20,683 nucleotides of DNA. It comes from a virus. The stretch lies in IMG/VR virus record IMGVR_UViG_3300017988_000043; one strand, given 5' to 3'. Both the position numbers and the translations under genes were made by a program. Positions 293 through 18,776 of the stretch are shown here, piece by piece (positions within the stretch are counted from its first letter, which is position 1; each line of letters opens with the position of its first letter). Under the pieces are notes generated by a model. The model did not search any database. It saw only the letters and a list, made by a program, of their open reading frames with translations, and was not told where the DNA came from.

Positions 293-340
293 TACAGTAT
301 ACCGGGGAGGCACAGGTTTTGGCTAGTATTTTGGGAAATT
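293..340 (-). promoter_or_regulatory. conserved promoter-like element copy 1 (minus-strand TATACT -10-like box, TAGCCA -35-like, A-rich upstream)
   Basis: Plus-strand text cctacAGTATACCGGggaggcacagGTTTTGGCTAGTaTTTTGGGAAATT. Near-identical to copies at 11748, 13848 and 16283. Confidence 0.5.
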
Positions 341-356
341 TTTTGCTGGGTTGAGG

Positions 357-758
357 CTATTTTTGCTGGGATTCAGGAGCACCGGGCGACCCCTGCACAC
401 CTTGAACGCCTTGAATTCCTTGAATTCCCTGCACGCCGCCCTTACCGTTCCTAGCCGCCGTCATCATGGTAGCGATGTCTGAGAACGTAGCCGAGCCCTT
501 GTTGATGCCGTAGGGCAGCGCAATGAGCCCAATGAGGGAGGCTATCAGCATCGGCATATTCGCCAGCCAGATGCTTACCTGAGACACGTCCTGCAACTGG
601 AAGATGTGGTAGAAGCAACGCCAGATTAGCCACATGGTGAATATGGAGAAAGCATACATGAGCACGCGAGTGGACGAAGGGGTGCCGTCAGGTTCAGATA
701 GAACTCCACGCAGCCAGTTTAGAAATCTTGGAAGCGGCAACTTGTCAACCCACGACAT
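357..758 (-). CDS. small membrane protein (2 predicted TM helices) with C-terminal collagen-like GxQ repeat tail
   Basis: 133-aa ORF with ATG and SD (AGGAGAGAAG). Hydrophobic stretches IFTMWLIWRCFYHIF and MPMLIASLIGLIALPYGI. C-terminus GKGGVQGIQGIQGVQGVQGSPGAP is encoded by 9-bp tandem repeats (cttgaaygcc) at about 380-440. Confidence 0.6.
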   Translation of the reverse strand: MSWVDKLPLPRFLNWLRGVLSEPDGTPSSTRVLMYAFSIFTMWLIWRCFYHIFQLQDVSQVSIWLANMPMLIASLIGLIALPYGINKGSATFSDIATMMTAARNGKGGVQGIQGIQGVQGVQGSPGAPESQQK

Positions 759-772
759 AACTTCTCTCCTAC

Positions 773-3082
773 TTAAGCACTCGGTATCTCTTTTTCAGAG
801 TCTGAGTTTTTAAGCATGTCGTCAAACTGACGGCGTTTTTCTTTAGCTTCAGCAAGCTGTTCCTCGGCCTCTTTAAGTTTCTTACGAGCCCGTTTCATTG
901 CAGCCGAGGGTTCAACAGCCACCGCTGCGGGTGGCGGTGAAGGCAGGTCCTTGGCTGTCTTTAACCCGGCGTTTCCGAAGCGTGCCAGCATGACTGGGAT
1001 GAGAGAATTTTCCGACTCTACTGTGAAAATGAATTCCTTGTTTTGGTCGATGTCGATGCGGATGAAATCTCCAATATGAATTTGTTGTGTTGCCACGAGA
1101 TTGGAAAGCGGGAATACAAGACTGCGTTCGATGACTCTTTTTAGATGACGAGCGCCGTACTTGGGGTCAGTGCCTTCGTGTAGAAGGTGCTTCTTCACAT
1201 TATCACTGCAACCAAAAATAAATTGACTGCTGCCGGTTGCTTGTAGAATGCGTTGCTGTACAGCTTCGAGTTCGAGTTCAAGAATTTGCTCAAGATGCCC
1301 TTGACGCAAAGTTTTGAAGACCACAGTTTTGTCGATACGATTCATGAACTCGGGAGAGAATTTTCGCTTGGCAGCATCGACCGCTGCACGTTGAATCTTT
1401 TTGTCAAACTCCTCGTCCACATGACCAAATGGTTTCGGAGGATTGAACCCCATGGCTCCATCGGTGAGTGAACTCATTTCTGAGGCTCCGATGTTAGAAG
1501 TCATCACGATGACGCAGCAACTCAAATCTACACGACGGTTATCTCCCAAGGTGAGCGAACCCTTATCGAGAATACCAAGTAGAAGCTGCCAAAGAGCATC
1601 TGAGGCTTTTTCAATTTCATCAAAAAGAATAATGGTAAGCCGCAGGTTAGCTGTGTGGTATTGGTTAATCGCTTCCTGATTTAATACGGGGTGTGTCTCT
1701 CGATGGCCGAGGTAGCCGGGAGGGGAGCCGATAAGTTTGGAGATTTCATGGGAGTGTTGAAATTCTGCACAATCAATTTTGATAAAAGCGCGTTCATCTC
1801 CAAATAGAGCTTCGGCGAGAACTTCCACAACGTGAGTATTGTGGGTAACAGTGAAGTCTCCGAGCAAGAATAACCCATCTCCATCTAGTTCAAACCCAAA
1901 ATACTCACCATAACCGGCTGGCTCTATCTTAATACCTGTACGTAGTACATTCTTTTTCTGTCTACGTTTTGAAGCCGCCTTTCTGACTAAACGTGTTGGG
2001 ATTTCCGATGTATTTCCAGAAATTAAAACACGATAGTACACATCTCCATTCCCTGTTTGGCACAATTTATTACAAGGCTTAAAGTATGCTGCCATTCCAA
2101 GAGAACGTGCTACATAGCAAACATCATCAGCCAACTGTCTATTTTTAAGTGTAAATTCAAAATTGCCCACACTAGATTTGTTTAAATGACCATCTGAGTC
2201 AATGAGGCCCGCTAGTAAGGAAAGTCGATTATCTCGACTGTTGGCTTTATACACCAAGGGCACGTGTTTATTATCAAGCACTTTCAATTCACGTAATGTT
2301 TCAAGTATTGGATTAACTGCCCGGTTAGTCTGTCCTCCCCTTACTTGAGTGCTGATTCTGTAACGTGGGGTCTTCCCATCGTTGTAAATGTAAGGAGAAA
2401 CCTTCATCCCTGCTAAAGCAGCAATGGAGTACACACATTCAACAATCTCAGTATCGTCTGTAGTTATCTCAGCCCACTTTGACGTACCATCACCAAGCCA
2501 TAAACCAAAAAAGTAAGGGTCGAGGGGGGTTGGCTGTTCTGTGAACTCTACTCCAACACGGTACCCCTTGGCTCTATGCTTGAATGTTCTATTTTGAGTG
2601 AGGTACTCTTCAATAGATAATTCCACCGTTTTAATGGGTTGACCAGCGGTGCTAGGAGTTAACTGCAAGGATAAAATATGGGGTCGGTTGACAGTATAAG
2701 GCTCCCCCTTATTTGGCACAACTGTGTACATTTGGTCAAATCCATGACCAAGACGTAACACAGTTTTAGGATTGGAGTCAGGCCCCATTAAGAGGTCGCC
2801 AACACGTACATCTTCTACACATTTGACGGAACCGTCAAACATGAGGACAGAGGTACCACGGGCAAGGCACTTGCCGGTGCCGGTTGGGCCGAGGAACAGC
2901 AGATTGCCCACAGGACGATAAGGCGGGTTCAACCCGGCTGTGAACATTTGATAGATGTCAACGACGGCATCCACCGCAGGGTCTTGACCAACAATTTTAT
3001 GACGGAGAGCGCGTTCAAAATCTTCAACGACGATACTTCTACGGCTGGGGTCTAACTGTCTGCCTATACCTGTGCCTGTCAT
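773..3082 (-). CDS. Clp/Hsp100-family AAA+ ATPase (ClpB/ClpA D2-like module) interrupted by an intein
   Basis: Extein motifs: GQDPAVDAV, Walker A LFLGPTGTGK|T, LIGSPPGYLGH, Walker B ILFDEIEKA, sensor-2 YGARHLKRV, C-terminal coiled coil. The track start at 3103 is TTG. ATG at 3082 with AAGAGGGG SD is preferred. Confidence 0.9.
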   Translation of the reverse strand: MTGTGIGRQLDPSRRSIVVEDFERALRHKIVGQDPAVDAVVDIYQMFTAGLNPPYRPVGNLLFLGPTGTGKCLARGTSVLMFDGSVKCVEDVRVGDLLMGPDSNPKTVLRLGHGFDQMYTVVPNKGEPYTVNRPHILSLQLTPSTAGQPIKTVELSIEEYLTQNRTFKHRAKGYRVGVEFTEQPTPLDPYFFGLWLGDGTSKWAEITTDDTEIVECVYSIAALAGMKVSPYIYNDGKTPRYRISTQVRGGQTNRAVNPILETLRELKVLDNKHVPLVYKANSRDNRLSLLAGLIDSDGHLNKSSVGNFEFTLKNRQLADDVCYVARSLGMAAYFKPCNKLCQTGNGDVYYRVLISGNTSEIPTRLVRKAASKRRQKKNVLRTGIKIEPAGYGEYFGFELDGDGLFLLGDFTVTHNTHVVEVLAEALFGDERAFIKIDCAEFQHSHEISKLIGSPPGYLGHRETHPVLNQEAINQYHTANLRLTIILFDEIEKASDALWQLLLGILDKGSLTLGDNRRVDLSCCVIVMTSNIGASEMSSLTDGAMGFNPPKPFGHVDEEFDKKIQRAAVDAAKRKFSPEFMNRIDKTVVFKTLRQGHLEQILELELEAVQQRILQATGSSQFIFGCSDNVKKHLLHEGTDPKYGARHLKRVIERSLVFPLSNLVATQQIHIGDFIRIDIDQNKEFIFTVESENSLIPVMLARFGNAGLKTAKDLPSPPPAAVAVEPSAAMKRARKKLKEAEEQLAEAKEKRRQFDDMLKNSDSEKEIPSA
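1838..2869 (-). mobile_element. class-1 intein with LAGLIDADG homing-endonuclease domain, inserted after Walker-A Lys (GPTGTGK^T)
   Basis: Starts at Cys, CLARGTSVLMFDGS (block A). Two dodecapeptide motifs, FFGLWLGDGT and LLAGLIDSDGHL. Ends ...FELDGDGLFLLGDFTVTHN followed by Thr (+1). 344 aa. Lower GC than flanks. Confidence 0.85.
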
Positions 3083-17915: not shown

Positions 17916-18077
17916 TTACGCTTTCTCGAACGTGACCTTCACCAAGTCGCTGTCCTTGAGCCCAAGCTGTGTCATGATTGCCCGACTGACATAGTAATCG
18001 CCAAGGGCATCGACCACGACGGCATCATTTTCCACGGCGACGGGCTTCATGCGAACGGAACCTTTCACTTTTTCCAT
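17916..18077 (-). CDS. AbrB/MazE (SpoVT_AbrB swapped-hairpin)-like small protein, 53 aa
   Basis: VSRAIMTQLGLKDSDLVKVTFEK resembles the AbrB/MazE core (PKEIRExLGLKEGDxVEV). ATG with GAGG 10 nt upstream. Absent from ORF track (<60 aa). Confidence 0.4.
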   Translation of the reverse strand: MEKVKGSVRMKPVAVENDAVVVDALGDYYVSRAIMTQLGLKDSDLVKVTFEKA

Positions 18078-18469
18078 TTCAGTCCGCCTCTCGCGTCTCT
18101 ATACATCTGACGAGCACCGGGAGCCCCGCGTAACCAAGTTGCACAACCAAAGTCCTCATCGTACATCGAACTGATGCTGAGAATGGGGAGTCCATTGGAG
18201 TCAACCACCACGTTGGTTTTGTCACCAATCAGTTCCAGCCGGTCGATGAGTTCCCTAACAGTCAGGTAGTGCTCATTCTCCTGTTCCGCTACCTCCGGCT
18301 CCTTCTGTTTCTTGACGGAGAACATGAGACACATCACAACAGCAGCAGCGACGGCGATACCCGACCCGATGAAGTTGTGTCTATCGGCGAAGCCGGAGAA
18401 CACATCGACAAGAATGACGATGATGCACCCGTTATGAACCCACTTGATTTGTTTTTCTGTGAGTTGCAC
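18065..18469 (-). CDS. membrane-anchored protein (134 aa; two N-terminal TM helices)
   Basis: GTG start with AGGAGGG SD. Hydrophobic segments CIIVILVDVFSGFA and IGSGIAVAAAVVMCLMF. Confidence 0.5.
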   Translation of the reverse strand: MQLTEKQIKWVHNGCIIVILVDVFSGFADRHNFIGSGIAVAAAVVMCLMFSVKKQKEPEVAEQENEHYLTVRELIDRLELIGDKTNVVVDSNGLPILSISSMYDEDFGCATWLRGAPGARQMYRDARGGLKWKK

Positions 18470-18722
18470 TCTGGCCCTCCTGTTGCGCCTTCTTCAAGGC
18501 GTCCAGCATCCAATCCGGCATCCCAGTAAAGTTGAGATGCCACAACCCGTATTGGCTTACAGGCTGTGGCTCCCAATCTCCGTCAAAAAATCCACGCTTC
18601 TTCCGAGCAGCATTTATCTTCGCTGCCATGGAAGGTGTCATTGGTAACTCTGCCCGAACGCTTCCATCCGGGCGCTTCAAAACGTACAGTAATTCCTGTC
18701 CAGCCTCGGTATCAGGTTTCAT
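18432..18722 (-). CDS. hypothetical protein (96 aa, MKPDTEAGQELLYVLKRPDGS...), probably leaderless
   Basis: ATG 6 nt after TATACT of divergent promoter copy 5. Track N-terminal extension reads through the promoter. Confidence 0.45.
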   Translation of the reverse strand: MKPDTEAGQELLYVLKRPDGSVRAELPMTPSMAAKINAARKKRGFFDGDWEPQPVSQYGLWHLNFTGMPDWMLDALKKAQQEGQSATHRKTNQVGS

Positions 18723-18723
18723 G

Positions 18724-18776
18724 CTTACAGTATACATGGCTGAATGCGTTTTTGGATAGTGTTTTTTTGTGGAAAG
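18724..18776 (-). promoter_or_regulatory. divergent fifth copy of conserved promoter-like element
   Basis: Minus-strand text ccacaaaaaaaCACTATCCAAAAACgcattcagcCATGTATACTGTAAGcATG. CCAAAAAC-N9-TATACTGTA retained. Confidence 0.4.

Follow-up and report, generated by a model that had tools for sequence, protein, structure and literature searches.

The viral DNA stretch IMGVR_UViG_3300017988_000043 (20,683 nucleotides (nt), analyzed as a whole and referred to below as the window) carries several copies of a conserved element directly ahead of gene starts, and this element is likely to be a sigma70-type promoter that starts non-structural transcription units in an uncultured phage lineage of peat bogs. 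We established its anatomy, conservation, orientation and constant geometry to gene starts in this analysis, and from these we infer polymerase binding, the position of the transcription start site and the sufficiency of the host holoenzyme. The strongest evidence for a promoter, as judged from the DNA, is a constant gap of 6 nt between a TATACT hexamer and an ATG start codon. While the kind of element, a conserved promoter family of a large phage, is known already, its sequence family, the systematic use of leaderless or minimal-leader gene starts, the spread across peat metagenomes and the presence before a chromosomal recombinase cassette are new.

To collect copies, all fetched DNA was searched with a profile of the element, which returned 77 matches corresponding to 53 distinct copies, or 49 after removal of near-duplicates. 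In 20 of the 53 distinct copies an ATG is located 6 nt (5 nt in two of them) past TATACT and opens an open reading frame (ORF) of 50 to more than 440 amino acids (aa). Counted by offset after TATACT, ATG was present at offset 6 in 18 of the 53 copies and in none or one at each of the offsets 7-11. The ORFs of this class belong to 13 unrelated gene families, BLASTP alignments between homologous members start at residue 1-3 of both proteins, and substitutions right behind the ATG affect chiefly third codon positions. With TATACT occupying -12 to -7, +1 would fall on the A of the ATG and the message would have no leader; the constant gap thus implies leaderless mRNAs. In a second class, also 20 of 53 copies, a GGAG-type Shine-Dalgarno sequence starts at +1 to +8 and the start codon follows at 16-22 nt; the predicted leader would be hardly longer than the ribosome-binding site. 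Most of the residual 13 copies come from one phosphatase/serine-recombinase cassette described below. Of the five copies in the window (P1 to P5, Table 1), P1, P2 and P5 are leaderless, with the ATGs at 289, 11745 and 18722 exactly 6 nt past TATACT, while P3 and P4 belong to the Shine-Dalgarno class.

The leaderless geometry corresponds to a published signature of leaderless genes, TANNNT with its first T about 12 nt ahead of the start codon, which was reported for 9.7-19.4% of genes in three Acidobacteria genomes (PMC3160421) and verified experimentally in Deinococcus (PMC12340547). By the definition used in the former study, 20 of the 53 element copies, representing 13 families, carry this signature. 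TANNNT at -12 was not enriched before the ORFs of chromosomal-type contigs, a comparison with a small sample and noisy ORFs. From the sequence point of view, a constant ATG distance of 6 nt over 13 families is not expected for a recombination site, an operator, an iteron or a terminator.

Within the window, a repeat finder detected one four-copy direct-repeat family at 282-345, 11738-11801, 13837-13900 and 16271-16334. The pattern CCAAAAACTAGCCAAAAC-N10-CCGGTATACTGTAGG (43 nt, at most 3 mismatches) matched these four sites and no others, all on the minus strand, compared with no match in 100 shuffles. To avoid circularity, we trained a weight matrix solely on copies from other contigs and then applied it to the window. 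The four strong copies scored 56-68 bits and the fifth site 6.2 bits, the top score of 200 shuffles being 2.6; only minus-strand sites rose above noise, and no position on the plus strand of the window did. P1 and P4 occupy intergenic gaps of 65-67 nt, while the 3' ends of predicted ORFs upstream reach into P2 and P5. The heptamer GTATACT occurs eight times in the window as opposed to 0.77 expected, and both matches away from gene starts derive from the palindromic AGTATACT at 4016-4023 within a coding region. The copies are co-oriented with the genes because all plausible genes of the window lie on the minus strand, and at every one of the 20 loci with at least two copies all of them share a single strand. 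A sequence-only reading of the window had proposed four near-identical copies and a divergent fifth one at 18724-18776, all oriented with the genes and immediately 5' of gene starts. Each of these proposals is borne out by the above results, P5 as a weak member and the orientation also at the 20 multi-copy loci, and the comparison with other contigs lends support to the promoter family suggested there. The finding named there as a refutation, an element in both orientations and unrelated to gene starts, did not materialize.

The element is bipartite, with an UP-like A/T block at -55 to -38, CTAGCCAAAAC at -37 to -27, a free spacer of 12 base pairs (bp) and GGTATACT at -14 to -7. The spacer (-26 to -15) contains 0.04-0.44 bit per position, and its length is constant at 12 nt; the 9 variable nt of the sequence-only reading therefore have to be extended to 12, of which the 'yCC' ahead of GG is semi-conserved. 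All 49 non-redundant copies share TATACT, which the search pattern itself contained, and the hexamer is also kept in P5, in two weaker sites of the window (S6 and S7, Table 1) and in copies found by profile search alone. At the sequence level the earlier assignment of TATACT as the -10 hexamer is thus upheld, TAnnnT being invariant across the copies. The A/T-rich block suspected upstream is likewise conserved even though it was outside every search pattern. Its conserved positions comprise A at -55, -54 and -53, followed by W, A and W, as well as T at -49 to -47, C at -45, A at -42 to -38 and C at -37, and the text at -55 to -37 reads AAA(A/T)A(A/T)TTT(y)CC-n-AAAAAC. The two UP-like tracts, AAA(A/T)A(A/T)TTT at -55 to -47 and AAAAA at -42 to -38, carry 0.7-1.6 bit per position. 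Also outside the pattern, C at -16 is conserved more weakly and T at +2 and G at +3 are conserved, sequence conservation 3' of -7 being weak overall. Position -1 is T in 35 and position +1 is A or G in 45 of the 49 copies, and a pyrimidine at -1 followed by a purine at +1 is the usual preference of transcription start sites. In an extended -10, the key base is the G at -14. Two blocks at a fixed distance, a free spacer, an A/T-rich upstream region and the start dinucleotide together make up the layout of a sigma-dependent promoter. A hairpin as a constant component of the element is not supported, clear hairpins being present in few copies and within the window at P3 alone (14022-14038).

In the interpretation we favor, the element would be read by a multisubunit bacterial RNA polymerase of the sigma70 type. 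TATACT would serve as the -10 hexamer, extended by the invariant GG at -14/-13, and T(A/T)GCCA, 18 bp upstream, as the -35 hexamer, while the two A-tracts near -52 and -40 would form an UP element for the alpha C-terminal domains and the 12 bp between the blocks would be a free spacer. Initiation is predicted at the purine 7 nt past the hexamer. In about 40% of the copies this purine would be the A of the ATG, which leaves no leader and requires translation by the leaderless route, while in another 40% or so the transcript would open with the Shine-Dalgarno sequence and reach the start codon after 16-22 nt. The canonical hexamer, G at -14, the UP-like A-tracts and the fact that TAGCCA is one change away from TTGCCA all speak for the host holoenzyme, as does the presence of the promoter before an apparently chromosomal operon. 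TTGCCA itself is present in two other promoter-like sites of the window. Furthermore, S7 (7462-7491) has TTGCAA (7486-7491) exactly at the place of TAGCCA, which supports a -35 role of the latter.

Among the closest known counterparts are the early promoters of T4, described as 'uber' UP/-35/TGn/-10 promoters with extra consensus regions that are read by the unmodified host sigma70 holoenzyme (PMC2988021). As in T4, a large phage genome carries many copies in its non-structural section, every one in gene orientation, and conservation extends from about -55 to -7, beyond the two hexamers, with an A/T-rich UP region and an extended -10. The differences include the -35 region with its spacer (TAGCCA(AAAC) and 18 bp here, GTTTAC/TTGACA and 17 in T4), the -10 extension (GG at -14/-13 here, TGn in T4), and the transcripts, which have leaders in T4 and are predicted to carry the start codon or the Shine-Dalgarno sequence at +1 here. 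In addition, the host of the present lineage is probably not a proteobacterium.

Several observations weigh against a promoter of this ordinary kind. TAGCCA shares no more than 4 of 6 positions with TTGACA and has to be combined with a spacer of 18 bp, and under selection for a strong promoter of a canonical sigma-A the -35 should have drifted towards TTGACA. The conserved block (TAGCCAAAAC) reaches -27, past the usual contact of sigma region 4, which fits a dedicated DNA-binding factor better. The cultured phage Tunturi_5, discussed below, has two unlike promoter-like families, so such families need not all mirror one host consensus. Finally, copies were collected by searching for the core (-37 to -27 and -14 to -7), so its near-invariance among them is in part built in.

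These points lead to a promoter that depends on a phage factor, a middle-type class in which the host sigma would read GGTATACT alone and CTAGCCAAAAC would be bound by a phage activator or sigma-like factor. We regard this as possible though rather unlikely. Middle promoters of T4 combine the MotA box (a/t)(a/t)(a/t)TGCTTtA with a -10 located 12 +/- 1 bp away (PMC2988021), and the element resembles them in having a host-type -10 and a strictly placed block of about 10 bp near -30 instead of a canonical -35. The CTAGCCAAAAC block spans 10-11 nt, is centered near -32 and continues past the -35 hexamer to -27, and its distance to the -10 is close to that of the MotA box (PMC2988021). TAGCCA is poor as a -35 and yet kept more strictly than most -35 elements, the block is missing from S6 although GGTATACT and a Shine-Dalgarno sequence are in place, which makes the -10 half look like an independent module, and the two distinct Tunturi_5 families argue for factor-specific classes. 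On the other hand, CTAGCCAAAAC is unrelated to the MotA box, lies 14 bp from TATACT and is accompanied by the UP-like block, which suggests direct contact with the alpha subunit as at early promoters. A phmmer search of ORFs of at least 60 aa in about 320 kb revealed no sigma70-like ORF, a weak result given the approximate E. coli RpoD C-terminal query and the partial genomes, and no MotA- or AsiA-like PHROG match was found among the 20 window proteins scanned, from about 20 kb of this genome. Moreover, the same promoter precedes a chromosomal cassette on bacterial-looking contigs, where a phage factor would normally be absent. As a separate observation, a related phage-type contig (L044:3-2336) encodes a protein with ADP-ribosyltransferase (ART-PolyVal) and GNAT domains, a match below the Pfam cut-off; in T4 the ADP-ribosyltransferase Alt modifies the RNA polymerase alpha subunit at early promoters.

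The cassette in question was found at about 16 loci, each with a single promoter copy ahead of three conserved genes encoding a 108-aa protein (orf108), a 135-aa dual-specificity phosphatase and a 205-aa small serine recombinase with a C-terminal helix-turn-helix. The 108-aa protein had no family match, and neither PADLOC nor NCBIfam assigned the three proteins to a defense system. A 182-kb contig of a Terracidiphilus metagenome-assembled genome (MAG; Acidobacteriota) matches one locus at 99.9% identity, such binning not being proof of origin, and another locus resides on a 332-kb contig. The flanking genes vary and include MmeI-type, type I, type III and MvaI/BcnI restriction-modification genes as well as genes for a DndB/DpdB-like protein, GIY-YIG, RmuC and a multihaem cytochrome. 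We did not find the cassette on phage-type loci. Between loci the cassette proteins are 52-100% identical, and the promoter still scores 42-70 bits where the proteins have diverged to 52-80%. In the cassette copies the 12-nt spacer is itself conserved (TTTT[G/C/A]AC..), and some have lost the UP-like part with both core blocks kept. In one subgroup (L053, L017, L031 and L020) the 108-aa frame lacks ATG, GTG and TTG close to the predicted +1 and offers only a CTG at offset 4; the other subgroups have ATG or GTG at offset 5. That the promoter has been kept ahead of a diverged bacterial chromosomal cassette suggests that it functions with the host polymerase. Taken together, the cassette loci point to an Acidobacteriota host and argue that its polymerase can use the promoter. 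Another explanation, which we consider improbable, is that the element is read solely with a phage-encoded or phage-modified factor and that the cassette copy is an infection sensor, a captured phage promoter switching on the recombinase and phosphatase upon infection; the capturer would then be the host or a satellite-like island.

A comparable gene-start architecture is seen in the cultured Tunturiibacter phage Tunturi_5. Among GenBank phages the DNA ligase of the window matched this phage (28% identity over 91% of the query) and one Micrococcus phage only. Tunturi_5 is a 309-kb jumbo phage of Acidobacteriota (PMC11924767). In the region around its ligase (PP885688: 33940-74698, L059) we detected two motif families. 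The first, AAAGTCATCTTTGG-N13-GTAGGTTGA, has 8 copies, 4 of them with TAGGTT followed after 6 nt by ATG. The second, GGGTATTAGCC, has 7-10 copies, 4 of them with ATG or GTG 5 nt past TATTAG. As in the window, a long conserved promoter-like module abuts the ATG or the Shine-Dalgarno sequence, while the sequences are unrelated: these 40.8 kb contained no match to the window matrix and, apart from the ligase, no tblastx similarity. The words 'sigma' and 'RNA polymerase' are both absent from the text that describes the isolation of the phage (PMC11924767), and the two families are apparently undescribed so far. The 97.6-kb phage Tunturi_3, similar in size, GC content and gene content, was tried as a relative as well and rejected, as it had neither a matrix match nor tblastx similarity.

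Leaderless phage messages include lambda cI transcribed from PRM and the middle and late genes of Thermus phage phiYS40, whose promoters are of the -10 type and are not known to have a conserved -35/UP module. These share initiation at the start codon with the present element, while hosts and promoter sequences differ. The '-10 adjacent to ORF' genes of Actinobacteria, Deinococcus-Thermus and, less so, Acidobacteria have the same TAnnnT with its first T 12 nt before the ATG (PMC3160421, PMC12340547). In contrast to these mostly -10-only or weakly conserved host promoters, the element is a strict phage module of 50 bp with UP and -35-like parts, and this one module serves both leaderless and Shine-Dalgarno-led genes.

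Signs of gene exchange at the repeats raise the question of whether they are chiefly a portable recombination cassette, similar to the documented promoter/stem-loop cassettes (PeSLs) of T4-like phages (PMC4122927), in which a long identical sequence would mediate homologous exchange and so shuffle genes between phages and between phage and host. As in PeSL cassettes, conserved early-promoter repeats flank small variable ORFs, and indels may abut the repeat (PMC4122927); dissimilarly, a stem-loop half is present in a minority of the element copies. Among non-identical loci, 26% of homology-block ends fall within 20 nt of the upstream edge of the promoter compared to 1.4% at random, a figure from a small sample that is inflated by redundant cassette loci and is partly trivial, in that alignments run through the conserved promoter and end where conservation ends. 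The window and L010 contain a three-gene block directly upstream of P4 (16333-18077, minus strand; f30, f16 and f22) that is missing from the syntenic L039, the one clear indel of this kind, and the promoter is common to phage-like and chromosomal contigs. Some copies, e.g. in L002, L044 and L048, have a GC hairpin and T-run abutting the UP block, but upstream hairpins were not significantly enriched (42 copies versus controls, Mann-Whitney p = 0.07). Recombination alone would not fix TATACT 6 nt from an ATG, and a recombinational role would be additional to the promoter function rather than replace it. We therefore judge this explanation to be very unlikely as the main one; shuffling of genes at the repeats is possible as a side effect and not as the function.

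The same gap bears on a group of further explanations, namely a terminator or REP-like repeat, an operator array, iterons, or a promoter of a single-subunit or phiKZ-type polymerase. Two copies were flagged on the plus strand as weak terminator-like hairpins that use G-T pairs, and the long conservation is superficially like that of T7-type promoters. However, the plus strand is without genes, the CCGG...GTTTTGG hairpin needs G-T pairs formed within the free spacer and lacks conservation, the flanks had no Rfam match, and iterons or operators would not hold the ATG at 6 nt in 13 families. In T7-type promoters roughly 23 contiguous bp form a single block across the start site (about -17 to +6), and the phiKZ and AR9 promoters consist of a short motif located there. 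The element, with two blocks reaching to -55, a free 12-bp spacer and TAnnnT, is unlike both, and domain and family scans of the window showed no polymerase gene. Any of these would be extremely improbable.

Three weaker sites accompany the strong copies in the window. We take P5 to be a genuine weak member, since it keeps the geometry of TATACT, 6 nt and ATG and since its counterpart at the orthologous place in the diverged relative L039 shows the same degree of degeneration, with TGTATACTGTAAnCATG retained. P5 is located within the 3' end of ORF 18725-18949, and this overlap with the upstream ORF is probably the reason for its degeneration. A sixth site at 10262-10296 (S6) had been described as sharing only the TATACT core and GGAGG with the others. 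Our analysis agrees: it has GGTATACT and a Shine-Dalgarno sequence, lacks the upstream half of the element and had no family-level matrix score. At the orthologous position of relative L032, before family f17, there is a full copy (49.9 bits), and S6 would therefore be a decayed or reduced descendant; from its sequence it may be either a decayed copy or a -10-only promoter. S7, a possible diverged relative, shows family spacing and a -35 nearer to TTGACA, its matrix score being within noise. This site and the constant gap between TATACT and ATG were both absent from the sequence-only reading.

Beyond the window, a scan of IMG/VR for CTAGCCAAAAC-N10-CCGGTATACT returned four viral contigs, whose similarity to the window in BLAST was restricted to the element. 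A metagenome scan for CTAGCCAAAAC-N12-GGTATACT returned 44 stretches, nearly all of them from peat or bog projects, and a few of these loci also share genes with the window (77-84% identity). Overall, some 50 distinct copies are spread over about 45 metagenome (peat or bog) and IMG/VR contigs, which have little or no further DNA in common with the window. The window genome itself is present on a JGI contig (99.96% identity) and as fragments in four other samples. The diverged relative L039 has gene order in common with the window, and promoters are found at three matching junctions, before families f3, f23 and f8. A diverged relative on a contig of 247,905 bp (L045) is syntenic with the window at 77-83% nucleotide identity over two genes. 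In relative L032 the DNA ligase itself begins leaderless at the equivalent of P2. Blastn of the 65-nt element consensus against GenBank phages yielded nothing relevant, and megablast of the whole window against 50,697 GenBank phage records gave no nucleotide match. Matches in a Caldilineaceae MAG and a Phycisphaeraceae MAG (two of the three from a scan of bacterial genomes) as well as the loci L013 and L035 were dropped, as they scored at or below the chance level for the pattern. The promoter-proximal genes that can be named encode DNA ligase and tRNA nucleotidyltransferase; the others are small unknowns, none is structural, in keeping with an early or middle class. No Rfam family was matched by ten loci in which no obvious ORF follows the promoter.

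The element offers a sequence handle on transcription in uncultured peat-bog phages, with relatives on contigs of up to 248 kb. It marks the starts of transcription units and corrects gene starts that standard gene callers seem to miss in this phage: on L005, the JGI call for the small ORF behind P2 begins at an internal codon and gives 55 aa, compared to 65 aa from the ATG at +1. The leaderless class indicates that the host translates such messages efficiently. Both the Terracidiphilus MAG contig and the architecture of gene starts shared with Tunturi_5 point to Acidobacteriota, a dominant and genetically intractable soil phylum, for which a compact putative strong promoter of 55 bp without need of a ribosome-binding site could be an expression part. 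A promoter common to the phage and to a defense-island cassette is also a concrete lead on defense.

Table 1. Promoter copies, related sites, genes and cassette loci. Positions are those of the window unless a locus is given; +1 positions are predicted.
Feature	Position	Strand	Description
Promoter copy P1	289-344	-	UP-like block 326-344, TAGCCAAAAC 316-325, spacer 304-315, GG 302-303, TATACT 296-301; +1 = A of ATG at 289; 67.7 bits
Leaderless ORF, 45 aa	152-289	-	Begins at predicted +1 of P1; homologue behind identical promoter in L047
Promoter copy P2	11745-11800	-	TAGCCGAAAC; TATACT 11752-11757; +1 = A of ATG at 11745; 55.9 bits
Leaderless ORF, 65 aa	11548-11745	-	Downstream of P2; overlaps the next gene, ATP-dependent DNA ligase
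Promoter copy P3	13844-13899	-	TATACT 13851-13856; +1 = G 13844, first base of GAGGAG; 61.3 bits
174-aa gene	13307-13831	-	GTG start at 13831; served by P3 via a 13-nt leader, essentially just the Shine-Dalgarno sequence
GC-rich terminator-like hairpin	14022-14038	-	About 125 nt upstream of P3, in the 197-nt gap behind the preceding gene
Promoter copy P4	16278-16333	-	TATACT 16285-16290; +1 = G 16278, first base of GGGAGAG; 67.4 bits
194-aa gene	15683-16267	-	ATG at 16267; served by P4; promoter and gene kept as a unit in L010, L039 and L045
Weak copy P5	18722-18777	-	TATCCAAAAA-N12-TG-TATACT; TATACT 18729-18734; +1 = A of ATG at 18722; 6.2 bits
Leaderless ORF, 96 aa	18432-18722	-	Downstream of P5; homologue in L039 also has TATACT, 6 nt and ATG
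Sixth site (S6)	10258-10272	-	GGTATACT 10265-10272, then TGTGGAGG (Shine-Dalgarno); ATG at 10243
Possible diverged relative (S7)	7455-7491	-	TTGCAAAAAC 7482-7491, N12, TC, TATACT 7462-7467; ATG of an 83-aa ORF at 7421
ClpX-like AAA ATPase (ClpX/ClpB-like AAA_2)	773-3103	-	Split by an intein (Hint and LAGLIDADG homing endonuclease)
Phosphohydrolase	3561-4169	-	
Endonuclease VII/HNH protein	4801-5388		
RNA ligase with N-terminal HNH	6148-7179	-	TTG start uncertain
Histidine phosphatase	8609-9436	-	
ATP-dependent DNA ligase	10754-11584	-	
Major-vault-protein shoulder and vault-repeat domain protein	19012-20409	-	
Cassette	L055:3659-5043		Terracidiphilus MAG contig CAZYCV010000001.1
Further cassette loci	L012, L017, L020, L021, L023, L026, L027, L030, L031, L033, L036, L037, L042, L051, L053		

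Besides the genes with an assigned function (Table 1), the window contains many small ORFs of unassigned function and no tRNA genes. Several jumbo phages encode RNA ligases with about 50% identity to that of the window, and the only GenBank phage matches of the vault-like protein are three uncultured phages of 460-735 kb; the element thus belongs to an uncultured lineage of what are probably jumbo phages. A homologue of the vault-like protein is also encoded in L039 (8014-10566, 851 aa). The HNH-fused RNA ligase, histidine phosphatase, phosphohydrolase and DNA ligase make up a nucleic-acid end-repair cluster, to which a relative (L003:251-1570) adds a leaderless tRNA nucleotidyltransferase, and this gene content suggests a counter-measure to host RNA or tRNA nucleases.

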